From the IMG/VR virus record IMGVR_UViG_3300045988_057894, positions 1 through 54,712 of that record: 54,712 bases of DNA; one strand, written 5' to 3'. Positions within the stretch are counted from its first letter, which is position 1. Each line of letters begins with the position of its first letter. This document shows, in pieces, positions 6,433 to 54,694 of the stretch. Both the position numbers and the translations under genes were made by a program. Under the pieces are notes generated by a model that was given only the letters and a program-made list of their open reading frames with translations, was not told the DNA's origin and did no database searches. This stretch comes from a virus.

Positions 6433-6546
6433 TTTTTGCATCCTCTCTTTCTTGATGCTATTATATCAGATGAACCCTATAAAATCAAGACATTTCTGAT
6501 ATTTCCACAATTTCCCAATGAACGCCCTTTATATTATATATAAATA

Positions 6547-8170: not shown

Positions 8171-8800
8171 TTATTCCTCTACGAGGTCTGCGTACTTCAC
8201 TTCAATGCGGGGCAGTTCATCGGTAGTGCTGGTCAATGCTCTGGTGATTTTTTCAAGCCCGGTGAACTCGCCATAGACGGTGATAATATCATCGCCCAGA
8301 ATCTTCACAGCATCGCCACCGCGCTTATCCAGCATATAATACTCGTCATCAGTATAGAATCCGTATCCGCTGTTGTCCGTGTAGGTTCTCCATGCTTTTT
8401 CGCTGCCGGAAAAGTTTGCGTCAATAATCTGTGAGACCTTTACCTTGACTACAATCTTAGTTCCTTCATATTTTTCAGGATAACGGCACAGTTCCTTATA
8501 GTCCACAGTCTGGCACTCTGCCTTGTAATCGTCCTCGCTGATCTCAGGCACAACAGATGCAACGGAAGAAGCGGTCGATTCACTTGCCTTAGATGTTGCT
8601 TTACTGCTGCTTGCAGAGCTGTCAGAGCTGCTACCAGAGCCGCCAATGGCAGACAGAACAATCAGTACGATAATAGCGATGAACCACCAGCGTTTGTAGA
8701 TGGGCGGTTTATTCTTACCGCCACACTGAGGGCAGACCTTTGCACTTGCGGCAATCTCTGCACCACAGTGCTTGCACGTTGTCATTTTACTTTTAGCCAT
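8171..8800 (-). CDS. Membrane-anchored protein with an N-terminal zinc ribbon
   Basis: GGGAGG RBS. CKHCG...CPQCG, then a TM helix (WWFIAIIVLIVLSAIGG), a Ser-rich linker and a globular C-terminal domain. Confidence 0.65.
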   Translation of the reverse strand: MAKSKMTTCKHCGAEIAASAKVCPQCGGKNKPPIYKRWWFIAIIVLIVLSAIGGSGSSSDSSASSSKATSKASESTASSVASVVPEISEDDYKAECQTVDYKELCRYPEKYEGTKIVVKVKVSQIIDANFSGSEKAWRTYTDNSGYGFYTDDEYYMLDKRGGDAVKILGDDIITVYGEFTGLEKITRALTSTTDELPRIEVKYADLVEE

Positions 8801-8930
8801 TGTAGATTCCTCCCTTTCAAGGCTTCTAAGGCAAGTATAGCACAGAACACAGACCCTTTGTAGGGGTCTTTTTATTTTTGCGGGAATTTTTTGAATTGTG
8901 CATAGAGAGCAAGATTAAAACTTGTGCAAA

Positions 8931-10139
8931 TCACTTCACTTTCTTCATTGGTCTGCCATTAGGAAGCTGCGGCGACTTGATGGCCTGTTCCCATGTCATT
9001 CCTTTCTTCTTCACTCTATAAGTAACGGTAGGGACAAGCAGCCCGTATTGTTCACACCATTCTGACAAAAATTTTGTTTCTCCATCCATCGTAATTGTCA
9101 TGCCGTGTTTTTTGTAAAACTCGGGTCTGTTGAACTCGCTTCGTGGACGCTGATTTGTCATCTGTTCTTTCATTGTCGCCCATCGACAGTTTTCGGGACA
9201 GTAATTTCCGTCATTGTTAATTCGGTCAATGCTTAACTCGTCACTATATCCATGAGATAATGCCCAATCTTGAAATGCCTTGTAATCGTCAATCCATTCA
9301 TCGCAAATAGAAATTCCTCTTGCGCCATAATATTTATAAGCAATCGACTTGGGGTTATAGCATCTCTGGTGCATACCATACCAAATATTAGCGATTCGAT
9401 GATTTACGCATCCGTATGTTTTTGATTCCATCCTTCTTGCAACGCAATTAACGCCACAAGATTTTGCTGTTCCGTTTGAAAGCAACGCTGAACGAACATT
9501 TTTAACATTACCGCAGTCACATTTACAAGGGAACGTACGATTTCTCTTGTTATACGCACCGATGATTTCAAGATGCCCAAATCTGCGACCAATCCAATCT
9601 TTGGAATCGTATTTTCCATAATTAAAATTGCAAGGGCATTTTTCAGCAACGCCATCAACTACTTTCTTTCCAGAGCGTTGCGACTTCTTGTGGCATCTAG
9701 TGCATTCACAAAGCCAACCATTGCCGCCTAATATTTCAAGCACTTTCCAAGTGCCAAACACCTGTCCAACATATTTTTCGTCATGGTATGGGTACAGATG
9801 CAAATATATTTTTTGAGCATCGGCTTCTTTTTGTTTTTTTCGGATTTTTTGGCGCTCTTCTCTTGCCGTTGCATTTTTTGCAAGTCTTACTGCTTTGCGT
9901 TCTTCTTTCATACAAGCACAATGTCCAGAGTTTTTCCCAGTAACATAATCCTTGCCGTTACGGGTCGTTCTAATCGCCCCGCAATGAACGCATTTTAACG
10001 TCCATATTTGTTTTGCACTATTCCTCATATCATCTGCGGGCTGAACATCAATAACTTCAAAATCGCCGTATCTTTTACCGATTCGTTCCTTGTAAAATCC
10101 ATCGCACCACTTTTCTAGCGACCATTCAGTTTTTTCCAT
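8931..10139 (-). CDS. Homing-endonuclease-like (HNH-associated) DNA-binding protein with three Cys-rich repeats
   Basis: Three repeats of the type FG.L.I.......C.C.CG. C-terminal SIDRINNDGNYCPENCRWATMKEQ motif is typical of phage HNH-type proteins. Confidence 0.6.
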   Translation of the reverse strand: MEKTEWSLEKWCDGFYKERIGKRYGDFEVIDVQPADDMRNSAKQIWTLKCVHCGAIRTTRNGKDYVTGKNSGHCACMKEERKAVRLAKNATAREERQKIRKKQKEADAQKIYLHLYPYHDEKYVGQVFGTWKVLEILGGNGWLCECTRCHKKSQRSGKKVVDGVAEKCPCNFNYGKYDSKDWIGRRFGHLEIIGAYNKRNRTFPCKCDCGNVKNVRSALLSNGTAKSCGVNCVARRMESKTYGCVNHRIANIWYGMHQRCYNPKSIAYKYYGARGISICDEWIDDYKAFQDWALSHGYSDELSIDRINNDGNYCPENCRWATMKEQMTNQRPRSEFNRPEFYKKHGMTITMDGETKFLSEWCEQYGLLVPTVTYRVKKKGMTWEQAIKSPQLPNGRPMKKVK

Positions 10140-30877: not shown

Positions 30878-31957
30878 ATGCCAAAAATATCAGACAATAA
30901 CCTTGTCGAGAAAAGCAAATCCCTTGTTTGGGCGAAATTTAGGGACTACACCGCAGGAGAACTTCGGTTGTTGGAGGTTTACCTATCAAGAATAAATCCG
31001 AGAGACCCAAACAGCAGCCGTGTGGAGTTCTCGTTGGCAGAGTACAGAGACCTGCTGGGGTTAAAAAGCCTTGATGCACGAAGGATTGAGCCGCAGATCA
31101 AGCACTTTCTAGGCAATACAGTGTCGATTCCCATTGACAAAGAGAAGGGCACGTTTGAGAGTTTTGTCCTTTTCACAAGGGCAAAACTGGATTATGTGCC
31201 GGAAACAAGGTCTTATGTTGTGGCAATCACTTGCAACCCTGATCTTCGCCCCATCTTTTTTGATATTGCCGAAAGCGGGTACGTTCGGTATCGTCTGCGC
31301 TACACATCACGGATGAAATCACAGTACAGCATCCTGCTTTATTCTATTCTTCGGGACTGGTTGAATATGGACAACAAACCGCATGAAATCAGTCTGAAAA
31401 GGCTAAGAGAACAGCTCGGTGCGATGGAAGCAAGCTACGATGTTTACAAGAACCTTCGTAAACGAGTGCTTGATGTTGCAGTGGATGAAATCAATGCTGT
31501 GTCTGACATCGTGGTGACCTATGAACCGGTTCTTGTGGCACGAAAGGCCGTGGCAGTCAAGTTTAAGCCCAAAATTAAAGCGTCTGAGACACTGATTGAA
31601 GCTCAGGCAAGCGAAATATCGACCGAACCTCAAAAATCCACCAGAAAGCCCCGTAGAAGCGGATACGAGGATTTTGACTGGTCTGTGTGTGACGAGCTGG
31701 AAAAGCAAGACTGCATTGACGTGGCAAAAGTGGTTGAGAAGTGGATGAAGAAAGAGCATCCAGAAATCAAGCTGCCGAGACGCAGAGAAGCGGTTTACGA
31801 GACGGTAAAGGCAGCGTATAAGGATATTTTGTCTTTGGACAGGTCTCCGTTCCCCGACAGACCTGTTGGTTATCTGATTAGAAGCGTGGACAAGGCAGGT
31901 ATCGTAGACAAGTATATGCCAGCGTTTTATTCCATTGAAGCGCTTAACAGCAAATAA
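30878..31957 (+). CDS. Plasmid replication initiator, Rep_3 (RepB/RepE-like) family
   Basis: TAAGGAGG RBS. N-terminus NNLVEKSKSLVWAKFRDYTAGELRLLEVYLSRI, then YSILLYSILRDW, ISLKRLREQLG, YKNLRKRVLDVAVDEINAVSDIVVTYEPV. This pattern fits iteron-binding initiators, and iterons lie directly upstream. Confidence 0.8.
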   Translation: MPKISDNNLVEKSKSLVWAKFRDYTAGELRLLEVYLSRINPRDPNSSRVEFSLAEYRDLLGLKSLDARRIEPQIKHFLGNTVSIPIDKEKGTFESFVLFTRAKLDYVPETRSYVVAITCNPDLRPIFFDIAESGYVRYRLRYTSRMKSQYSILLYSILRDWLNMDNKPHEISLKRLREQLGAMEASYDVYKNLRKRVLDVAVDEINAVSDIVVTYEPVLVARKAVAVKFKPKIKASETLIEAQASEISTEPQKSTRKPRRSGYEDFDWSVCDELEKQDCIDVAKVVEKWMKKEHPEIKLPRRREAVYETVKAAYKDILSLDRSPFPDRPVGYLIRSVDKAGIVDKYMPAFYSIEALNSK

Positions 31958-31972
31958 AGAAAGAGTGATAAA

Positions 31973-32746
31973 ATGGCAAAAATCATAGCTATCGCCAACC
32001 AGAAGGGCGGCGCAGGCAAAACCACCACAAGCACCTGTCTGGCTGGCGCGTTGCAGTTGCTTGGCAAGAAAGTCTTACTGGTAGACTGCGATGCCCAGTG
32101 CAACGCAACGGACACTTACGGCGCACAGACAGAGGACGTATGTACTTTGTTCGATGTAATGACCCGTCAGGGCACGGTAGAGGAAGGAATCCAGCACTGC
32201 GAAGCTGGTGACATTCTGCCGTCAGACAATGCATTGAAGGACATTGACGAGCAGCTTGTCCGGGACATGGGCAAGAACTTCCGGCTGCGTGAAGCACTGG
32301 AATCCGTGTCTGAACAGTACGATTACATTGTTTTGGACACTCCCCCGCAGCTCGGTCTTGCGCTTGTAAACGCTCTGATTGCCGCCAACAGCATCATCGT
32401 GCCCATTACGGCAGACCGATATGCACTGGCTGGTCTGAGCCAGCTTTCGCAGACCATTGGCGACGTTCGCAGATACTTCAACCCGACCTTGAAGATTGAA
32501 GGTCTGCTTCTGAACCAGTACAAGAGCCGTGAGAACCTGTCTAAAGAGGTCGTGGAACAGCTCCCTGTGATTGCACAGAGCATGGGCACAACCCTGCTGG
32601 ACGTGAAAATCAGACCGTCTATGGGCGTTCGCAAGTCACAGGCAGAACGACACAGCCTGTTTAGTGGTGACACGGCAAAGAGCACCAGTGCAGAGGACTT
32701 CAAGGCGTTGGCGCAGATGATTGTGAAAGGAGAAGAAAATGAGTAA
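31973..32746 (+). CDS. parA: ParA/Soj-type partition ATPase
   Basis: Deviant Walker A IAIANQKGGAGKTTTS and VLLVDCDAQCNAT. 257 aa with no N-terminal HTH (type Ib-like). Confidence 0.9.
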   Translation: MAKIIAIANQKGGAGKTTTSTCLAGALQLLGKKVLLVDCDAQCNATDTYGAQTEDVCTLFDVMTRQGTVEEGIQHCEAGDILPSDNALKDIDEQLVRDMGKNFRLREALESVSEQYDYIVLDTPPQLGLALVNALIAANSIIVPITADRYALAGLSQLSQTIGDVRRYFNPTLKIEGLLLNQYKSRENLSKEVVEQLPVIAQSMGTTLLDVKIRPSMGVRKSQAERHSLFSGDTAKSTSAEDFKALAQMIVKGEENE

Positions 32747-35065: not shown

Positions 35066-35497
35066 ATGGGCGTAACCATCAAATGCAAAAAGACTGGGCG
35101 TGAAATGGATGTGGGATATTTCGGTTTTTTCAAGTTGAGAACGAAAGTTGCAGAACTTGTTGGTTCGGAAGTCGGAGAACACTATAAAAAACTTGATGAC
35201 ATTTTCGATATGCCATCTCCCGAAAAAGAACATGCTCTTGAATCGTACGATAACGAAACAGAACGATTGATTGAAAGCAAAATGCTTCCGATTAAAATTG
35301 CAGACTTCCTTTACCAGTCTGATTGCGATGGAAAAATCCGATATGGTGCTTGCAAGGAAATCTTAAAAGCCATAGGCGATTATGACGATAGCATTATTTA
35401 CGGATATGCAGGTAGAGAAAATCCCGCAAGGTTCAGAGACTTCAAAGAAATCCTTCAAGATTGTGTAGACAATAAGTGCTTTATGATTTGGAGATAA
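35066..35497 (+). CDS. Hypothetical protein (143 aa)
   Basis: GGAGGA RBS. Followed by a strong terminator. Confidence 0.55.
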   Translation: MGVTIKCKKTGREMDVGYFGFFKLRTKVAELVGSEVGEHYKKLDDIFDMPSPEKEHALESYDNETERLIESKMLPIKIADFLYQSDCDGKIRYGACKEILKAIGDYDDSIIYGYAGRENPARFRDFKEILQDCVDNKCFMIWR

Positions 35498-35502
35498 CAA
35501 GA

Positions 35503-35545
35503 AACCCCTGTGTAGCCGTTAAAAACTACACAGGGGTTCTTTTTT
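35503..35545. terminator. Bidirectional terminator between convergent operons
   Basis: 13-bp stem AACCCCTGTGTAG / CTACACAGGGGTT flanked by A- and T-runs. Confidence 0.75.
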
Positions 35546-36182
35546 ACTTATCAGCAATGCAATCCCAGTAGAGATACGCCTTACCGTCAACAGCGTCCGT
35601 GTCATCAAGGAACGCCTTTGCCATGTCAGCGTAGAAGCCCGGAGTGTCAACAGACTGGCGTTTTGCGACCTGACAATAATCCGAGTACATCATGTTCATC
35701 ACAGCCCAGAAATCGTTCGGGTCACAGGTGATGTTGCGCTGTTTGGCAACGTCCTGTGTCTGTTCCAACGTCCAGTGACAACCCTTCGTGCCGTCAGCAT
35801 TCACCATGCTGTCGCACCATTCCTCCGCTTCATCGTGGGTGAGGTGCTGGCGTGGCATCCTGATCGAGCGGCTGTCTGCGCCGCCACGCTCATACTGCCC
35901 AGAGTGCTTGTCCCAGTCACCGTTCTGCGAGAAGCCGATTTGCGGCATTCTGCGCCCATATTCTACGTCAGGATAACGGGGGATAGGGTAGGGGTCGATG
36001 TAGCGGTTCTCCTCTTGCGGATAGTATGGATAGCGGTCGCTGCCATCTTCCAGCTTGCGCAGACGGCGTTCCAGCTCACGCTCCCTGCGATCGCGCTCTT
36101 CCTCAAGGCGGTCACGTTCCGGCTCACGGTCTTTGTCGTGGTCGCGGAGCATCATCATGCGGCGAAAATTAGTCTTGCCCAT
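35544..36182 (-). CDS. Hypothetical protein: R/E/D-rich, Pro/Tyr-rich N-half with a globular C-half
   Basis: GAGGAGG RBS. DREPERDRLEEERDRRERELERRLRK, then YPYYPQEENRYIDPYPIPRYP. C-half has HWTLEQT...MNMMYSDY. Confidence 0.55.
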   Translation of the reverse strand: MGKTNFRRMMMLRDHDKDREPERDRLEEERDRRERELERRLRKLEDGSDRYPYYPQEENRYIDPYPIPRYPDVEYGRRMPQIGFSQNGDWDKHSGQYERGGADSRSIRMPRQHLTHDEAEEWCDSMVNADGTKGCHWTLEQTQDVAKQRNITCDPNDFWAVMNMMYSDYCQVAKRQSVDTPGFYADMAKAFLDDTDAVDGKAYLYWDCIADK

Positions 36183-36196
36183 AATCTAATACCTCC

Positions 36197-36568
36197 TCAA
36201 GAAATGGACGCAGGCGCACCGGCGTGGGAACGGCAGAAGTAGCCAAGATACTTAAACGTGCCGGTGCTGGTTGCGGACGTTGCTACACGGGTAGCGTAGC
36301 GGGTGCGGGTGTGGATGCTCTCGGCGGTTGCCTGCGCGCAGTTGCAGTCGGTCAGAGGGTATGCGGTCGTGCCTGCACCGATGGTAATAACCACAGGGGC
36401 GTTGATGGTGGTCGTGTCCGGCAAGCTCTGAGCAACAACGATACAATACTTCTCTCCGTTCTGGTATGCGCCAGCAGGGATGTTGATGGTCAGAGTATCG
36501 TCGGCAAACGTGACTGCCTGACTGATGACCAAGTGCGGGCAGAGTTTGCAGCTTGTTTTGCAAGCCAT
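36197..36568 (-). CDS. Cys-bearing beta-rich hypothetical protein (123 aa)
   Basis: AGGAGG RBS. Reads MACKTSCKLCPHLVISQAVTF...CIVVAQSLP...DCNCAQ. Confidence 0.55.
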   Translation of the reverse strand: MACKTSCKLCPHLVISQAVTFADDTLTINIPAGAYQNGEKYCIVVAQSLPDTTTINAPVVITIGAGTTAYPLTDCNCAQATAESIHTRTRYATRVATSATSTGTFKYLGYFCRSHAGAPASIS

Positions 36569-36653
36569 AGTGTTTTCCTCCTAAAAAATCAGGGGCAGAG
36601 GTGTCTTACCCCTGCCCCGATGGTTCACCCGGTGTTATCGGGGAGTGTGTAGG

Positions 36654-37526
36654 TTAGCAGCAGCCGCAGCAGTTCACGCCAACGTTAGGGTTTGCCACCT
36701 GATAAGCGGGAATCGGACGAGGATTGACCCGGTTCAGGATGGTATCGGTCTGCTGAGACATCACGGTGGTCAGAAGCGCATTCTGACGATCCTGAGAAGC
36801 GGCGAACTTCAGGCTCTGGTTCTCAGCGGTCAGAGTGGCAATCTTATCCTGCGTGAAGTAGTCCATCATGCTGCGGAAGTTGGCGTTGCAGTTGTCCATG
36901 ACGGCACGGGCGTTATCTGCGATAGCCTGACGGGTAGCGCAGTCTTCCGTTGCGATGGTATACTTCAGGTCGCCGATGAGCTGCTTGTTCTCGCAGCAGC
37001 AGGATGCCAACTGCGTGGCAAGTGCGGTCTGGCCAGCCTGCCGAGCGTTGCTTTCCTGCATGATAGCAAGGTTGATGGCGTTGTCACCGTTGGACACGCT
37101 GCGTTCCAGACCGTTCACAAGCTGTGCGTTCTGGTAGCCGAGCTGGCAGATCGCACTGTTTACGCCTGCAAAGCCATTGGCAATGTTGGCATTGATGCCA
37201 TTGATCTGTGCCAGCTGGTCATAGCCCAGAGAGCAGATACCGCTCTGGATGCCAGCCAGAGAGCGAGAGGTGTCCTGCTGGTAGAAGCCCTCCGACAAAG
37301 CCGCACGAGTATCTGCGCCGCCCTGACCGGTTGCGCCAGTGCCGACCAGATAGGGGATGTAGCTGTTCATGCCGTTGTCGCCGCCGTTCCGACCGTAGCC
37401 GTTTGTACCCCAGCCGAAGATGATGGCGAGGATGATAACCGCCCACAGACCTTCGTTGCCGAAGAAACCGCCGTTGTTATTACCGCCGTCCTGCCCAGCC
37501 AGATAGCCAGTTGCAAAATCGTCCAT
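36654..37526 (-). CDS. Gly-rich, single-TM, coiled-coil protein ending CCGCC
   Basis: AAAGGAG RBS. GGNNNGGFFGNEGLWAVIILAIIFGWGTNGYGRNGG, repeated N/Q/Cys heptad-like segments, a CCC cluster and a terminal VNCCGCC. Confidence 0.6.
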   Translation of the reverse strand: MDDFATGYLAGQDGGNNNGGFFGNEGLWAVIILAIIFGWGTNGYGRNGGDNGMNSYIPYLVGTGATGQGGADTRAALSEGFYQQDTSRSLAGIQSGICSLGYDQLAQINGINANIANGFAGVNSAICQLGYQNAQLVNGLERSVSNGDNAINLAIMQESNARQAGQTALATQLASCCCENKQLIGDLKYTIATEDCATRQAIADNARAVMDNCNANFRSMMDYFTQDKIATLTAENQSLKFAASQDRQNALLTTVMSQQTDTILNRVNPRPIPAYQVANPNVGVNCCGCC

Positions 37527-37648
37527 AACAAAACTCCTTTCAGTTTTGCGTTATGCTATCCCACCGCCGTATGCGATGGGCGAAGCCAAACAAAAGCGGT
37601 TTTTATCAAGTCCGCAAAACTGAGAAGCGTTTCGCTTAGAGGGATGCT

Positions 37649-37900
37649 TTACCGAGGCAGCGTCAGGTTCAGGACGCTTGCAAGCTGGTTCAGGTCGATG
37701 CCCCGCTCTTTGGCGAGGTTCTGCGCCATCGTCCTGAGCTGCGTTTCGTTTTTGCCCTGAATCAGGTTCAAGCCCTGCATGATAGGGGCGTTTTGCCCGC
37801 TCAACTGCTGGATAAGCCCCATCGGGTTCTGCCCGGCACGAGCCAGATTTGCAAGCTGCATGATGGGGCTGTGCGTAATCATGTCAAACGGAGAGGGCAT
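37649..37900 (-). CDS. Small Q/N/L-rich hypothetical protein (83 aa)
   Basis: AAAGGAG RBS at the internal ATG. Internal repeat PIMQLANL / PIMQGLNL. Confidence 0.5.
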   Translation of the reverse strand: MPSPFDMITHSPIMQLANLARAGQNPMGLIQQLSGQNAPIMQGLNLIQGKNETQLRTMAQNLAKERGIDLNQLASVLNLTLPR

Positions 37901-37902
37901 TG

Positions 37903-38421
37903 TTATTCTCCTTTCTTCGCTGTGGCAGTGGGCTTGGAAAAGCTCTTTTGCCACTTTTCCAGTTCATCCAGCCTGTGGACGAGGGCGTTATACTCTTCAA
38001 TAGGCACATACTGCTGTGTCGGTGCAGCGGTCTGCTGTGCCTGTTGCGCCTGTATCTGCCGCCATGCTTCCGGGCTGTAAAACTCCTGCACATAGGATTC
38101 ACAGGTGTCTGGATTCAGCCGCTTGCAGTAGATCACGCCGCTGCGCAAGTCTGGGCAGTAGGTCGGTCTGCCGTACAGATCAGACGGTATCGCCAAAAAC
38201 TCCTCCCTGCTGGAAACAGGCCTGCCCAGCAGCCAACCGCCGTCCTGTACCGACTGCTGAACAGGCTGTTGCCCATTCATCGGCTGCGGACGCTGCGGCT
38301 GTACCTGCTGCATCTGCGTGTTTGGCAGGGGAGTGGCAAGCCCTACCGTGCCCATGCCGCCGTAAGGATTGACAGGCTGCTGCGGAACGTAGGGCGCTCC
38401 GGGTGTTGGATAATAGCTCAT
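37903..38421 (-). CDS. Protein with a Q/P-rich N-terminal region (172 aa)
   Basis: AGGAGGG RBS. First 60 aa are about half Pro/Gln (YYPTPGAPYVPQQPVNPY...QPQRPQPMNGQQPVQQ). Confidence 0.55.
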   Translation of the reverse strand: MSYYPTPGAPYVPQQPVNPYGGMGTVGLATPLPNTQMQQVQPQRPQPMNGQQPVQQSVQDGGWLLGRPVSSREEFLAIPSDLYGRPTYCPDLRSGVIYCKRLNPDTCESYVQEFYSPEAWRQIQAQQAQQTAAPTQQYVPIEEYNALVHRLDELEKWQKSFSKPTATAKKGE

Positions 38422-38505
38422 AATACATCCCTCCTATTGCGCCAAGTATACCGCACCGGCAAAAAGCGAAGGACAACGAACGCACAACGAAGGACAAATA
38501 TAAAC

Positions 38506-38576
38506 TGATACAACTGATACAAAATGAAAAAAAAATAAGGCAAAGTCTGGAGACTATGCTTGTATCACTTGTATCA
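38506..38576. promoter_or_regulatory. Inverted pair of tandem TGATACAA sites in a divergent promoter region
   Basis: TGATACAAcTGATACAA (38506-22) and TTGTATCAcTTGTATCA (38560-76). The second abuts an extended -10, TGgTATAAT, of the plus-strand regulator gene. Confidence 0.55.
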
Positions 38577-38622
38577 GTTTTGTGGTATAATCAGTACAGT
38601 AAAAAAAATGGAGGAAACAAAT

Positions 38623-39120
38623 ATGGAAAACACAACTATCCGCAACCTTGGCAAGCTGTATCGCTTGCTGGACGAAGCCTGCACCCCTGACCATGCAAAT
38701 CAGGCAGACCTCAGCAACGCCACGCGGTTTCCTGTGCGCGGCGTGATGATGAAAATCACGCTGGCGCACAAGCTCCGCAGGATGACCCCGGAGCTTGACA
38801 ACGCTTGCTCTTACGTCCTGAAGGATGTAGACCTTGAGGACGTGGATAACAGCTTTGCGCTCAAGGCGTTGTCGATGCAGCAGCAGGGACTGTTCGTGAT
38901 TGGGTATAACTCGCCCGATTATAAAACTCTCGGCGTGTCCGCTGTCAAAATTAAGGCCGCTCGGGAAAATGCCGGTCTGACCATTCGGGCGCTGTCGGAA
39001 AAGACCGGGTTGTCCACCGCGACCATCCAACACGCAGAAGCCGGAAAGCCTACCCGAATGGCCACGCTCAAGAAAATTGCTGAGGCGTGTGGCGTGTCTC
39101 CGGAAGATTTACAAGGGTAA
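38623..39120 (+). CDS. Regulator with a C-terminal XRE-type HTH and an unknown ~110-aa N-terminal domain
   Basis: GGAGGA RBS. LTIRALSEKTGLSTATIQHAEAGKPTRMATLKKIAEACG. Confidence 0.65.
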   Translation: MENTTIRNLGKLYRLLDEACTPDHANQADLSNATRFPVRGVMMKITLAHKLRRMTPELDNACSYVLKDVDLEDVDNSFALKALSMQQQGLFVIGYNSPDYKTLGVSAVKIKAARENAGLTIRALSEKTGLSTATIQHAEAGKPTRMATLKKIAEACGVSPEDLQG

Positions 39121-39465
39121 TAAAAAAGCGCCCACACAGAAAAATCCGCATGAGCGCTTAAAGATATAAATATACTTATATAAAATGATGCAAAATAGAA
39201 AGTTTGAACGTTTTACTTGCAAAAAATCAAGAGCGGAACCGCCCATAGGCAATGCCGCTCTCTACAAAGGCCGTAGCATTTCAATCTGGGACTCCTAAGT
39301 GCATAGGAATGTAAAACGGGATGAACCGCTTCCAACTATGGAAGTGTTTAGGATATCGCCTAACAAGATACCAATCGCCAAAAAGGTGGAAGGTTGTATA
39401 GTATTTTGCGATTCTTGCCACTCGTTCTTCTTTTGTATTGCACATAAGCATCACCATATAAAATC

Positions 39466-39625
39466 GTCTCCCGCATAGTACGCACTGTAAGTAGGCGGGC
39501 GGGAGACTGTATCATCTTAAAAGACCCGCCATGATACGCATCGTTGAGAGGCTTAGCGGGTTCAGATATCCACCCTAATGCGCTTCTTCGAGAGGCCGGG
39601 TGGATTTGTTAAGATAATTATACCA
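39466..39625 (-). ncRNA. Candidate small RNA(s): three tandem GC-rich hairpins behind an extended -10 element
   Basis: Stems at 39568-605 (8 bp), 39523-62 (7 bp, followed by TTTT on the minus strand) and 39466-507 (9 bp). TGgTATAAT at 39625-17 (minus). Two loops share GCCTCTC. Confidence 0.3.
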
Positions 39626-39631
39626 TAATTC

Positions 39632-39672
39632 GTGCAAAAAGAAAAGCGGCAGACCCGAAAGCCTGCCGCTTC
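39632..39672 (-). terminator. Rho-independent terminator of the late/lysis operon
   Basis: Minus strand AGCGGCAG gctttcgggt CTGCCGCT followed by TTTTCTTTTT. Confidence 0.65.
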
Positions 39673-39714
39673 AATGCGTTTCACAAGAAAACGCACCCAA
39701 TTAAAAGTATAGTA

Positions 39715-40183
39715 TCACACATCCAGCATTTTTTCAATGCTTTTCAGCCGATAGCTTACCGCCGTCCGGCTGTAATGCGTCTGTGCTGCAATGTCCGGCA
39801 GCGGGAGCCGCTCCACATACCGCAGTAAGGCTATCTTACGGTCTACCCTCCCAAGCGGTGCGTTTTTGATGGCGGCGGTCATCTGCTGTCGGTCAAGTCC
39901 TTGCAGCGCAGTGGGCAGCACTACACGAGCCGCCGCCACAAGCAGCACCGAGCCAGAAGGGTTGCGGCAGCTGTCCGGCGTTACGCACCATATTGCCAAT
40001 GACGGCAAAATGGTGACGTTTTGTCACCAGTTTCGTGACCTCACGAAATTGTTCTTGTGCGGCGAACATCTTGCCAATAGCAGCTAAATAGCTGTAAAAA
40101 ACACTGTTATTGTCAAAATGGGAGATGACACCAACTAAAAACGGCATTTTTAGCTGGTGTTGCTCGTATGTAGTGCTTGCCAT
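39715..40183 (-). CDS. Two overlapping ORFs that together resemble one small sigma/ArpU-like late regulator
   Basis: ORF 40183-39893 supplies a plausible N-half. ORF 40008-39715 ends in a region-4-like HTH (IALLRYVERLPLPDIAAQTHYSRTAVSYRLKSIEKML). The ORFs overlap by 116 nt in different frames. Confidence 0.4.
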
Positions 40184-40193
40184 GATATCCTCC

Positions 40194-40526
40194 TTACTTC
40201 CCGATCGCGGGCTTTTTCTCCGACAATGCCTTCTTCATCATGCTGACAGCCTTTTCGATCACGCTGTCCAGCACTTCATCGGTGATAAAGGGCTTCAGCC
40301 AGTCCGGCAGTGCGCCGCGCAGCGCGGCAAAAACCTGCGCCTTTTTCTTTGCGCCCTGACCGCTGCCCATGATGCTGTTTTCTGCCAGGGTCACCAGCTC
40401 CAAGGCCCACTGCTTGACGTACTGCTTATAGCCTAGGCGGATGGCGCCCACTGCCAGCGCGGCGAAGCCAACGACCATCAGCACCAGTGCGATGGGTGCG
40501 GGGATAAAGTTAAAGATTGCTTCCAT
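40194..40526 (-). CDS. Holin (LL-H-like)
   Basis: AAAGGAG RBS. N-terminal TM (IPAPIALVLMVVGFAALAVGAI) followed by a charged helical tail. Downstream of the endolysin. Confidence 0.55.
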   Translation of the reverse strand: MEAIFNFIPAPIALVLMVVGFAALAVGAIRLGYKQYVKQWALELVTLAENSIMGSGQGAKKKAQVFAALRGALPDWLKPFITDEVLDSVIEKAVSMMKKALSEKKPAIGK

Positions 40527-40899
40527 GATTTGTTACTCCTTTCAGCAGGTAGTTGTTGATATCGGATTTACTTTTTTGCATACCTTCGCGGTTGTTGCCG
40601 GAAAGTTGTGCATCCAGAAGATTCTGCACCCCAACAAGGACGAGACGCATTTCTTCATCAATGCCGTCAAAGCGGCGCAGGTCTCTTGCAAGGGCCTGTG
40701 TGTGTTGAAGCTGCCCCTGTTCCAGCACACCAAGTCTTTTGTCGAACGCATCCATTCGCTTGTTCTGCGCGTTGTCCGGCTCCTGCGCCTTTTTGATGTA
40801 CTTGTGGATAATTTCCAACACCTTGTCGATGGTGATGGCCGCAGCGCACAGGCTGCCCAGGATGCCCAGCACCCACAGCAAAGCTTCTTTTTCGGTCAT
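40510..40899 (-). CDS. N-terminally TM-anchored coiled-coil protein (lysis accessory / holin-like)
   Basis: GGGAGGG RBS. LLWVLGILGSLCAAAITI TM. Located between the endolysin and the holin. Confidence 0.45.
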   Translation of the reverse strand: MTEKEALLWVLGILGSLCAAAITIDKVLEIIHKYIKKAQEPDNAQNKRMDAFDKRLGVLEQGQLQHTQALARDLRRFDGIDEEMRLVLVGVQNLLDAQLSGNNREGMQKSKSDINNYLLKGVTNHGSNL

Positions 40900-41573
40900 T
40901 TGCCCTCCCGGAGACGGTCAAGCCCCTTTTTCGCAATAATTTTGGCGTAGTCCTTATAGGGCACAGACAAGTCCACGCCGGAAACCTTGCCCGGTATTGC
41001 ATCCATAACGCCGGGAATCTTGCCATTGCTGGTGTACTGCCACATACCAAACGGCCAGCCCGGTTCGGGCTTCTTGCCGCGGTATGCCGCCAGCCAGACG
41101 TCGTATGGCTTGAGCGCCGCGCCGGTCATGTACAAGTTATCGCGGCCAAAGCACAGCCCGGTGTACAGCATGGCGTAAAAGCCCCAACTTTCCACTGTGC
41201 CCAGCGCATGGGCTGCAATGTCCGTCAGGGTCTGCTTGTCCAGCGGGGCCTGCACATAGCTGTCCTCGACGTCAACCGCCACGGGCAGCTGCACCGTCTT
41301 GCCGGTCAGCACCTTTCGCAGCAGGGCAAGCTCTGCGTCCGCTTCTGCCGTGTTGACCGCCTTGCAGTAGTAGTACACGCCGCAGGGGATGCCCAGCCGC
41401 TTGCACTCGGCATAGTTGCGCTCAAAAGTGGGGTCAATGTACGGCTTGCTGGGCTTGTCTTTGGCGCTGTTGCCCAGCGCCCGCAGCATCGCGCCGGAAA
41501 CAAGGCCGCTTGCCTTTACCTTGTCCCAATTGATAGTACCCTGCCACTTGGATACGTCCATAATAGACTTCAT
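40896..41573 (-). CDS. Endolysin, GH25 muramidase family
   Basis: MDVSKWQGTINWDKVKASG start and the later VAVDVED motif are typical of GH25 lysozymes. Confidence 0.82.
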   Translation of the reverse strand: MKSIMDVSKWQGTINWDKVKASGLVSGAMLRALGNSAKDKPSKPYIDPTFERNYAECKRLGIPCGVYYYCKAVNTAEADAELALLRKVLTGKTVQLPVAVDVEDSYVQAPLDKQTLTDIAAHALGTVESWGFYAMLYTGLCFGRDNLYMTGAALKPYDVWLAAYRGKKPEPGWPFGMWQYTSNGKIPGVMDAIPGKVSGVDLSVPYKDYAKIIAKKGLDRLREGK

Positions 41574-53614: not shown

Positions 53615-54694
53615 TTAGTAAGCCTTGATGCAGTACACAGCGTCCATGCGCTCAAAGGACGGCAGGACGATTTCGGAAGCGTAGACGTTGGCGTTGACCG
53701 GATGAACGGTCAGCTCAGTGGTGATGGCAACGCCAGTGTTCACGATGGACACGGATGCGCCAGACTGACCAGACAGCAAGTCGGCCTCTTCAGGAGTAGT
53801 GCCGTACCAAGTGCTGCCCAGAGCGCCGGAAGGAGCAACCACCACCATGCCATCGGGCAGGTACTTCTCACTTGCGCTGTACTGGTCTGCCTTGAACATC
53901 TTGTCATAAAGATGGATGGTCAGACCGGTTGCAGATTCGATAATCTGCCGTGCTTCGGCATCCAGCAGAACAGCATTTGCCTTTGCGGTGACGGTCATGA
54001 ACCGGTTCTTCACCTCGTCCGCAGCAATCATGTTGCGGAAGGTTGCGGTGTTCATGTAAACCTCAGTCACGACCTCGCCCACGCTCGCCAGAACAGCATC
54101 CTTTGCGGCGTTCAGGTCGGCAATGGGGGTGGCGGTGGCAGCAGACCACTTAGACTTTGCGACACCACTGATATCCTTAAAGTTGGTGGACTTCCAGCCG
54201 CCGTCCGGGTCGTAGTTGTAGGTGTAGTTCACGCCGTTTGCCTTGATGGTGATGCCAGGAATGCCATTGGCGGGAGCCAGAAGCTGCCAGATCATGCGCT
54301 CAGGAACGATACGCGCACCAGTGATAAGCTGTGCGGTGTCATCGTACAGACGGTTCATCACGTCGCGAGCATAGGGGTCGTTGCTGTCCAGAACACGCAG
54401 GATTTCCTGACGGTCTTTCTCGCCCAGATGGTAGCCCTCACGGAAGAACGGCATCTCGGTCTCATCGAACTTAAAGCCCTCACGGGTGCGGAAGGTGGCC
54501 TTTGCATCAAATGCGCTGGGCATCAGAGAAACGCCAACGCCCTTGTGACCACGAAGCCACTTCAGGTCGAGACCGGCCTTCTTCTTTGCGGGGAACAGTG
54601 CGTCAGATGCGAAAGGCATCGCATTGGTGGGGTCGTTCGTCCAATAGGCGGCAATCGCAGCCGGGGCAAAGACTTCCTTAAGATTCAGTGCCAT
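53615..54694 (-). CDS. Major capsid protein (lambda gpE-like family by recollection)
   Basis: 359 aa. Follows the scaffold and decoration genes across the circular junction. Its first 101 nt are duplicated at 1-101. Confidence 0.82.
   Translation of the reverse strand: MALNLKEVFAPAAIAAYWTNDPTNAMPFASDALFPAKKKAGLDLKWLRGHKGVGVSLMPSAFDAKATFRTREGFKFDETEMPFFREGYHLGEKDRQEILRVLDSNDPYARDVMNRLYDDTAQLITGARIVPERMIWQLLAPANGIPGITIKANGVNYTYNYDPDGGWKSTNFKDISGVAKSKWSAATATPIADLNAAKDAVLASVGEVVTEVYMNTATFRNMIAADEVKNRFMTVTAKANAVLLDAEARQIIESATGLTIHLYDKMFKADQYSASEKYLPDGMVVVAPSGALGSTWYGTTPEEADLLSGQSGASVSIVNTGVAITTELTVHPVNANVYASEIVLPSFERMDAVYCIKAY

Follow-up and report, generated by a model that had tools for sequence, protein, structure and literature searches.

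A widespread accessory cassette in phages of gut Clostridia with a possible membrane-anchored stalk-and-knob product

Several described phage and bacterial systems share features with the gene block considered here, five small genes (g1 to g5) and a preceding small regulator gene (sig) on the minus strand of a 54,712-nt virus sequence from IMG/VR (record IMGVR_UViG_3300045988_057894, positions 1 to 54,712; this whole stretch is referred to below as the window). Modules consisting of a fibre and its helpers, e.g., stf-tfa of lambda, gp17 of T7, and gp37 with gp38 and gp57A of T4, are similar in that the cassette, too, combines a coiled coil (g3), a small predicted beta-sandwich whose model resembles predicted fibre proteins (g4), and a helper-like gene, and lies in the late region on the late strand. 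They have no sequence homology to the cassette, whose stalk and knob are separate polypeptides. Further, the cassette stalk has a membrane-anchor-like segment and about 13 cysteines, the tip is the most conserved part, and the block has its own regulator, terminator-like element, and RNA leaders and is exchanged between unrelated virion modules.

The i-spanin Rz consists of an N-terminal anchor and a Cys-containing coiled coil. Compared with the two-component spanins (Rz/Rz1), g3 has the same plan and likewise follows holin and endolysin genes, whereas the hosts of the cassette have a single membrane, no lipoprotein partner is encoded, the predicted topology is opposite, and the genes number five rather than two. 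Protein p16.7 of phi29, an early organiser of DNA replication, has an N-terminal membrane anchor, a coiled coil, and a cytoplasm-facing distal module that binds DNA. This protein of a Firmicutes phage resembles the cassette in the anchor, the coiled coil, and the cytoplasm-facing distal module; in the cassette, however, the latter is a separate fibre-tip-like beta-sandwich, and the genes stand at the end of the late region. Finally, the BclA nap of the exosporium and the Cys-rich lattice proteins (ExsY/CotY, CsxA, CdeC) share with the cassette proteins the lack of signal peptides, the abundance of cysteine, and, probably, self-association; in addition, variant cassettes have a BclA_C-like protein in place of g4, and the cassette regulator may be a small protein of the GerE/LuxR type. 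On the other hand, the window proteins have neither significant homology to exosporium proteins nor collagen-like repeats, their context is a phage late region, the hosts include bacteria described as non-spore-forming, and no sigma-K/E/F/G/H consensus was found upstream of g1.

Here, we report that the five genes and sig represent, in the window, a self-contained accessory cassette that is widespread. What the cassette builds is a matter of tentative interpretation: the reading we favour, while giving it less than an even chance, is a membrane-anchored stalk-and-knob assembly of unproven function, whose expression would be controlled in several layers.

Hidden Markov models (HMMs) built from the window proteins and iterated were used to search 88 loci (84 genome or metagenome loci, three contigs, and the window), many of which are cut by contig ends. 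The g4 gene was detected in 85 of these, g3 in 81, g1 in 73, sig, upstream of g1, in 61, g2, invariably between g1 and g3, in 60, and g5, directly after g4, in 52. With one exception, the hits are co-linear and co-directional. The g4 family comprises 1669 homologous clusters at 90% identity and has at least 587 IMG/VR matches; at 50% identity, there are 368 clusters, mostly of about 100-140 aa. The cassette is carried by temperate phages, phage-plasmids, and at least one apparently integrase-less phage of Oscillospiraceae and other Clostridia of the gut, the named hosts being Anaerotruncus colihominis, Flintibacter muris, Acutalibacter, Pseudoflavonifractor, and Agathobaculum desmolans. An earlier note on this DNA, made from the window sequence, had described the genes as an orphan operon and suggested a survey of their co-occurrence. 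The genes do co-occur elsewhere, and the operon is not an orphan: the order and orientation are conserved in many phages, g5 has a DUF7841 domain, and g1 and g3 belong to PHROG families.

The constant position of the cassette is the distal end of the late (tail and lysis) region, on the same strand. It follows an amidase and a holin in locus L085; GH25 and holin genes in the window and in L005, L087, and L091-L094; an r1t holin and a C39-like peptidase in bajarodcaudo virus 5; and a 2548-aa protein in L001. In Dulem virus 36 (L090, PP511521.1), which encodes a polymerase and a primase and has no integrase among the annotated features seen, it stands directly after the receptor-binding protein, without a regulator gene. 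There, the holin and autolysin genes (8630-9703) are placed between the terminase region and the portal gene, at a distance from the tail genes, and the cassette fills the usual lysis position behind the receptor-binding protein. The 2548-aa protein of L001 (1-6211), directly upstream of the cassette, contains Q-rich coiled-coil regions, and neither a lysin nor a holin is visible between the two. On the 3' side, the cassette is followed by an integrase or a Rep3/ParA module.

The complete cassette is present in 63 of the 80 relatives picked solely by the Rep3 gene; the remaining ones mostly have incomplete sets that fit truncation by contig ends. Within the window lineage, the cassette is retained at 92-94% DNA identity, far better conserved than its flanks, and the GH25 lysin is detectable in only 7/82 relatives. 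The lysis genes of this lineage are mosaic, the cassette being kept. Elsewhere, the same cassette (g4 60-70% identical) is joined to unrelated tail and lysis modules. As it is transferred as a whole among phages whose tails and lysins are unrelated, its function should be independent of the virion type.

In the window, the five co-directional ORFs have the positions and compositions described in the earlier note, and its account of a compositionally extreme, co-transcribed-looking unit with strong ribosome-binding sites was confirmed. Each ATG is located 6-9 nt downstream of a GGAG or GGAGG Shine-Dalgarno (SD) box, and the unit is GC-rich relative to its surroundings (0.535-0.567 across 36-39 kb, as compared to 0.38-0.46 and 0.49 in the flanks). 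Among close relatives, with 19-55 distinct alleles per gene, the ratio of nonsynonymous to synonymous substitution rates (dN/dS) is between 0.036 and 0.060 (g1, 0.060; g2, 0.036; g3, 0.055; g4, 0.053; g5, 0.058). Hence all five ORFs, including the low-complexity ones, are under strong purifying selection and encode real proteins.

In the earlier note, no resemblance to virion, lysis, replication, or known defence proteins was recognised, and no characterised family was matched in Pfam, NCBIfam, PADLOC, and PDB sequence searches: Pfam, NCBIfam, and PADLOC yielded nothing for g1-g4; in PADLOC-DB, g1, g3, g4, and g5 have no match, and g2 matches only PDC-S02 (E 0.038); PDB sequence and profile searches with g1, g3, g4, g5, and the knob protein of L091 gave nothing significant. 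The only characterised family represented in the cassette is DUF7841, for which no function is known. As for known fibre families, there is no Pfam match for g1-g4, and the PHROG families matched are all of 'unknown function', the single 'tail fiber' PHROG match being that of g1 at E 0.047. Neither a lipobox nor a signal peptide was seen on reading the sequences of the cassette genes; specifically, g1, g2, g4, and g5 have no signal-peptide-like N-terminus. Collagen-like GXX repeats are absent from g1-g5.

The g3 gene (36654-37526, minus strand) encodes a 290-aa protein with an acidic, Gly-rich N-terminus followed by a hydrophobic, anchor-like segment and a Cys-studded helical region; the CCC cluster and the CCGCC terminus are present, as was seen before. 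In 42/42 homologues examined, the hydrophobic segment is 14-17 residues long and has the pattern IILAxIFGWG (consensus IILALIFGWG). The CCC is invariant, the C-terminus carries a CGCC or CCGCC cluster, and these 42 homologues have 12.7 cysteines on average. Self-association and cross-linking through the Cys clusters are plausible. The segment is flanked by 3.4 D/E and 0.45 K/R residues on the N-side and by 1.2 K/R on the C-side. This weakly suggests an N-out/C-in topology, in which the remainder of the protein would be on the cytoplasmic face. The protein matches phrog_16490 (E 3.5e-40), a function-less PHROG, and all its weak matches are coiled-coil families or structures. The best PDB match of the g3 profile, the HR1 region of a coronavirus (E 0.14), was regarded as compositional. 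A Pfam scan of 40-42 homologues each of g3 and g4 revealed no consistent weak family, only scattered chance matches.

The layout of g3 brings up the possibility of a spanin-like device for a third step of lysis or egress, in which, following the action of holin and endolysin, g3 and a distal partner would remodel the membrane or break up an outer layer of the envelope, e.g., the S-layer. The anchor and the Cys-containing coiled coil resemble those of Rz, the cassette stands behind holin and lysin genes in most contexts examined, its layout suggests expression after the late genes, and the non-significant best PDB match of g3 is, again, a heptad repeat of a class-I fusion protein. Nevertheless, we consider such a device the least probable of the explanations discussed here. 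The hosts, being Clostridia, have a single membrane; no lipoprotein or secreted partner is available, g4 having no signal peptide; the charge bias would put the stalk on the cytoplasmic face, opposite to Rz; and in L001 and Dulem virus 36, the cassette does not adjoin the lysis genes.

The most conserved member of the cassette is g4 (36197-36568, minus strand), a 123-aa protein starting, as had been noticed, with MACKTSCKLC. Its N-terminal Cys motif consists of C3 and C10. An Fe-S site, suggested by CX3CX2C in the window protein, was dropped as a defining feature, since C7 is not conserved across the wider family. AlphaFold2 (AF2) modelling with 40 close homologues resulted in a pLDDT of 46.7, whereas 84 sequences, including distant family members, yielded a model with pLDDT 82 and pTM 0.75. 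The latter predicts an eight-stranded beta-sandwich (the knob) with a disordered N-terminus (residues 1-12, carrying the cysteines) and a disordered C-terminal tail. When this model was compared to the predicted viral structures of BFVD using Foldseek, the first five matches were apparently members of the same family, and the next ones, with E 7e-5 to 1e-2, TMq 0.44-0.60, and probability 1.0, were for the most part long fibre proteins of phages, i.e., those with collagen triple-helix repeats, T7 tail fibre, trimeric-autotransporter-stalk, and tail-collar domains, and hyaluronidases; one more match was a 294-aa DUF7841 protein. Hence the earlier impression that none of the products resembles a virion protein does not extend to the g4 model. 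The few longer g4-containing proteins that were examined, considered as stalk-knob fusions, were rejected as chimeric or frame-shifted predictions with fragments of ROK kinases, integrases, or lysins.

The fold match of g4 and the place of the cassette in Dulem virus 36 make a serious rival of an accessory virion fibre that aids reversible adsorption, i.e., a whisker or a fibre of the side or head, comparable to stf-tfa of lambda; g3 would then form a trimeric shaft, g4 the distal tip, g1 an adaptor, and g5 and g2 would act as assembly chaperones. The top two PDB matches of g4, though non-significant, also are a baseplate or tail-fibre chain of a phage and a capsid spike, a helper-like gene stands immediately downstream of the tip gene, and the cassette is on the late strand, behind the receptor-binding protein in Dulem virus 36 and behind the 2548-aa protein in L001. 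Moreover, a BclA_C-like knob occupies the g4 slot of variant cassettes, and BclA_C domains are common at the tips of collagen-like phage fibres. Still, we regard a virion fibre as unlikely, even if it is the most probable of the alternatives, and prefer a membrane assembly for four reasons. Firstly, the anchor-like segment of g3 is universal in the family, and a membrane anchor is unusual for fibres of tailed phages. Secondly, the cassette works with unrelated virion modules, and no phage-specific docking domain is apparent. Thirdly, receptor-binding tips are normally hypervariable, whereas no gene of the cassette is better conserved than the presumed tip, g4. Finally, the cassette has controls of its own, being usually located beyond the lysis genes, behind a terminator-like hairpin, with its own regulator and RNA elements.

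The variant cassette of L091-L094 (6842-9510) retains homologues of g3 and g5 and has a 132-aa BclA_C-like protein in the g4 slot. The L091 protein matches BclA_C over profile positions 2-107 of 128 with 21.6 bits (E 2e-4), below the 38-bit cut-off. Comparison of the g4 family with this protein by hhalign revealed no profile similarity; therefore, the same slot is held by two different knob-type beta-sandwich proteins, which independently supports the knob reading of g4. These variants occur both in phage-plasmids of the same kind and in integrase-bearing prophages. Their gene order is a ribbon-helix-helix (ParG-like) regulator, which replaces sig in such cassettes, a 134-aa and a 75-aa protein (analogues of g1 and g2 undetected by the HMMs), a 212-aa g3 homologue, the BclA_C-like protein, and a 169-aa DUF7841 protein, whose N-terminus contains Cys and His instead of the charged disordered region.

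Inside the operon, there are two structured and conserved RNA elements that the earlier note does not mention. The 122-nt spacer between g2 and g3 (37527-37648, minus strand) is a structured leader with a minimum free energy (MFE) of -43.8 kcal/mol and a z-score of -4.14 compared to shuffled sequences. In its long-range helix, which surrounds two hairpins, the SD of g3 is paired with an anti-SD located upstream. Besides this SD helix, the elements common to about 30 distinct homologous leaders are a GCGG/CCGC hairpin, whose conserved loop is UCUUGAnnAAAAA, and a third hairpin, whose loop is AGCGYRCGG. The SD is paired with the anti-SD in 29/29 homologous leaders (mean z -4.3), at least three of the four GGAG bases being covered in 24 of them. 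The consensus structure was obtained using RNAalifold with ribosum scoring on a trimmed alignment, the raw MAFFT alignment having given one helix only. In the resulting 17-sequence alignment, 80.6% of cells are paired, as opposed to 39-55% in slid controls, and 11 pairs have changed on both sides, a number matched by 2/500 shuffles. Like riboswitches and translational operators that sequester the ribosome-binding site (RBS), the leader is a three-helix domain closed by an SD-pairing helix, with conserved loop and junction sequences and covariation; unlike them, it corresponds to none of the 4227 Rfam families searched over 35300-40300 at E up to 10, where both the leader and the following g3-g4 spacer had chance-level matches only. 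The leader is a candidate new cis-regulatory RNA, predicted to act by occlusion of the ribosome-binding site.

The g3-g4 spacer (36569-36653, minus strand; MFE -31.7, z -3.59) contains a small hairpin followed by UGA and then, just 5' of the g4 SD, a second, GC-rich and terminator-like one (36592-36618), after which come UGA and a T-run. A hairpin of the type GGGGCGG...CCGCCCC-(U)UGA is the strongest one within 130 nt upstream of g4 in most of 79 unique loci, ending approximately 5-25 nt before the g4 start. Across the family, a role in processing or stabilisation seems likelier than simple termination, because, of the 70 loci whose hairpin has 7 bp or more, a T-rich tail is present in only 21, although the window hairpin does have the T-run. 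Antiterminator/terminator pairing in this spacer (CCCCGAA with UUCGGGG) was considered and rejected, the complementarity being lost in CCGGC-type variants.

The recurrent first gene of the cassette is sig (39715-39882 in the window, minus strand), which encodes a small helix-turn-helix (HTH) protein, apparently of the Sigma-70 region 4 or LuxR(GerE) type. Members of this family are about 55-110 aa long. The window protein matches Sigma70_r4_2 with 21.1 bits (E 2.5e-4), below the cut-off of 25.7; among 29 family members, 16 match Sigma70_r4_2 (best 5.5e-8), 13 match Sigma70_r4 (1e-10), and 11 match GerE/LuxR (6e-7). Its dN/dS is 0.205. In most loci, the start codon of sig is so close to the stop codon of the late gene before it that a separate promoter would have no room, which implies expression in the lytic cycle; judging by the layout in most relatives, the cassette is expressed downstream of the late operon. 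In the window, the gene between the holin and sig is a 96-aa ORF (39893-40183, minus strand; starting with MASTTYEQHQLK) without Pfam matches. This ORF is kept in L087, where the gene caller picked it rather than sig, and its end overlaps the longest possible sig ORF.

Directly after sig, there is a terminator-like hairpin (39643-39672, minus strand) with a 13-bp stem followed by TCTTTTTG. Terminator-like elements were found in 27 of 37 unique sig-g1 spacers, as compared to 7 of 80 control regions inside g3. The window contains a second such hairpin in this spacer (39126-39159, minus strand), which in L087 is followed by the g1 leader within a few bases, and another one with a 16-bp stem (35502-35539, minus strand), closing the operon after g5. 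No sigma-A, sigma-K/E/F/G/H, or ECF-type promoter consensus was found upstream of g1. The only recurrent box after the hairpin there is 'T-run, GCGAAAAT(A)'. In many loci, a box of the form 'T-run, (A)TGCGAAAAT(A/N)nAGG' is situated between the terminator-like hairpin and the g1 SD, e.g., in L001 (approximately 6440-6500), L012, L022, and L085; it could be an unusual promoter -10 region or a part of an antitermination site. The window lineage differs here. Between the sig terminator and a conserved 58-aa ORF (39281-39457), there is also a sub-threshold match to the abiF RNA motif (RF03085; 39524-39560, minus strand; 26.8 bits, gathering score 37, E 0.12), in which the conserved loop GCCUCUCAACGAUGC is identical; no AbiF-like gene is nearby.

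The regulator that the earlier note had considered dedicated to this operon is a different one, and it proved to be an insertion. It is an HTH_3 (Xre/Cro-type) protein with an uncharacterised N-terminal domain (38623-39120, plus strand; C-terminal Pfam HTH_3 match, E 2.3e-13), whose gene has GGAGG 8 nt before the ATG at 38623 and is indeed divergent from the operon. The inverted pair of tandem sites described in the region between them also is there: four exact copies of TGATACAA at 38506-38576 form two inverted tandem pairs (38502-38580), the arms being 21 nt long, 95% complementary, and 37 nt apart. The entire window contains six copies of TGATACAA, with 1.6 expected, and the four sites are likely operators of the inserted regulator. 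In a blastn alignment, positions 39161-39124 of the window correspond to 3497-3534 of L087, and the similarity resumes at window position 38498 with 3540 of L087. As L087 runs from the 39124-39161 hairpin into 38498 within a few bases, 38499-39123 is a 625-bp indel, absent from L087 and external to the conserved cassette. Unrelated ORFs are found at the same junction in L005 (a 106-aa HTH-like and a 135-aa one). The HTH_3 regulator is present in 10 of the 54 close relatives that contain both flanking genes, and in 11 among 82 relatives, and the distance from sig to g1 in close relatives varies from 200 to 2200 bp. The sig-g1 junction (window 38499-39700; L005, L087, L095-L174) is an insertion hot spot among near-identical phage-plasmids.

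These observations bear on the idea, put forward speculatively in the earlier note, that the cassette is cargo expressed in the lysogen under a switchable repressor, which would form a cross-linked layer at the surface of the cell or spore (exosporium-like) or a barrier against superinfection. Spore coat and exosporium proteins are rich in Cys, Tyr, and Gly and have no signal peptides, and the same is true of the cassette proteins. Further hints are the BclA_C-like protein in the variant g4 slot, weak as this sub-cut-off match is, the GerE/LuxR-like appearance of the associated regulator in 11/29 members, the position at a prophage end beside an integrase or plasmid module, typical of accessory cargo, and, in the window, the Xre-type repressor with four operators facing g1. 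However, the repressor and operators are an insertion found in a minority of relatives, and the placement of sig immediately behind late genes implies expression in the lytic cycle. Among the carriers is Dulem virus 36, which encodes a polymerase and a primase and shows no integrase among its annotations seen, and among the hosts are Agathobaculum and Pseudoflavonifractor, which are described as non-spore-forming. There is no significant homology to coat or exosporium families, the BclA_C match being that of a protein other than the window g4. The latter matches none of the BclA_C (PF18573), DUF4183, ENA (DUF3992), and CotZ-type models; no DUF3992 or DUF4183 match was seen among 40 g4 homologues in Pfam at E up to 1, and the 50 best PDB matches of g4 in Foldseek include no chain of an ENA protein. 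DUF4183 (F-ENA) is used here as defined in PMC12357932. PADLOC gave no match either. Our literature search found no publication joining exosporium, prophage, and cysteine-rich proteins. Overall, we deem lysogenic surface cargo improbable, less so than a spanin-like device and more so than a virion fibre.

The three other proteins are rich in disordered regions. The g1 product (37903-38421, minus strand; 172 aa) has the Pro/Gln-rich head reported before, which is disordered and also rich in Tyr, followed by a conserved domain of about 55 aa with the pattern RPVxSxEEAxA...GxIYxK and a C-terminal amphipathic helix; it matches the function-less phrog_21718 (E 1.7e-9). The g2 product (37649-37900, minus strand) is rich in Q, N, and M, with NP repeats, and has 83 aa if translated from the ATG; an alternative GTG start at 37954 would make it 101 aa long. 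The shorter version is favoured because the homologues (66-106 aa) are mostly 73-83 aa long. The g5 product (35544-36182, minus strand; 212 aa), which contains the tract RDRLEEERDRRERELERR, consists of a charged disordered region and a C-terminal helical domain, residues 111-202 of which are DUF7841 (PF25223; 92.3 bits with a cut-off of 25.2, E 3e-26). This family has no known function, and our literature search found nothing on it; in some cassettes, a different helical C-terminal domain substitutes for it. The disordered region of g5 is rich in R, D, E, Y, P, M, and G and highly variable in length; an extra g4-like domain in the long variants was suspected and rejected, as the additional length is disordered region.

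To return to the membrane-anchored assembly that we favour, g3 would provide the N-terminal anchor and the stalk, a long coiled coil studded with cysteines and terminated by a Cys cluster. The g4 protein, predicted to be a beta-sandwich knob similar in fold to fibre proteins of phages, would sit on this stalk via its N-terminal Cys motif, bridged by a metal or disulfides, while g5, g1, and g2, rich in disordered regions, may be partners or assembly factors. Assembly would take place on the cytoplasmic side, which fits the absence of signal-peptide-like N-termini in g1, g2, g4, and g5. The Sig protein would be made with the late genes and then activate or anti-terminate the cassette, with the RBS-sequestering leader of g3 and the stable hairpin before g4 setting translation and mRNA levels. 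In this phage, the mobile Xre-type repressor with its four operators, inserted upstream, probably adds local control. Our best guess for the role is an envelope-associated one at the end of the lytic cycle, related to release or adsorption, and not lysogenic conversion.

Several considerations weigh against this proposal. The g3 anchor is predicted from hydrophobicity only and is short (14-17 residues), and its topology from a weak charge bias. The contact between g3 and g4 is deduced from adjacency, co-occurrence, and complementary Cys clusters. The fibre proteins matched by g4 are predicted structures with TM-scores of about 0.5, for which the aligned fibre region was not reported, and a Foldseek search of the PDB gave nothing significant (best E 0.1, TMq 0.41). 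A knob facing the cytoplasm would have no obvious target. Finally, the cassette of Dulem virus 36, directly behind the receptor-binding protein and without a regulator, has more the appearance of a virion module.

Should the assembly indeed be anchored in the membrane and not part of the virion, it would be categorically new. In the boldest form of this reading, which we think improbable, the cassette would encode a new phage apparatus, a membrane stalk and knob cross-linked by metal or disulfides and made after the late proteins, that serves egress or post-lysis targeting in single-membrane hosts, together with a new class of RBS-sequestering RNA. Functionally, such an apparatus would correspond to spanins or to the egress pyramids of archaea; alternatively, it would display a fibre-tip knob on membrane fragments and vesicles.

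The window covers most of a phage-plasmid of about 59 kb. Its closest IMG/VR relatives are 54-60-kb contigs, and one 115-kb IMG/VR contig contains two copies at a distance of 58,969 bp. In g4, at least 80 IMG/VR contigs, the majority from dataset 3300045988, are 95-98% identical, and this lineage of approximately 59-kb Rep3/ParA phage-plasmids is very abundant in IMG/VR. The long minus-strand late region is headed by the gene for Major capsid protein E (53615-54694, minus strand). As described before, the cassette lies between the lysis genes and the plasmid module, with the GH25 endolysin (40896-41573) and Holin_LLH (40194-40526) upstream and the Rep3 initiator (30878-31957, plus strand) and ParA (31973-32746, plus strand) downstream.

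Present in essentially all members of this abundant lineage, the cassette is one of the more conserved unexplained gene blocks in phages of human-gut Clostridia. Once its function is known, thousands of hypothetical proteins would be annotated, and the cassette could reveal a new step of the lytic cycle in phages of single-membrane anaerobes.

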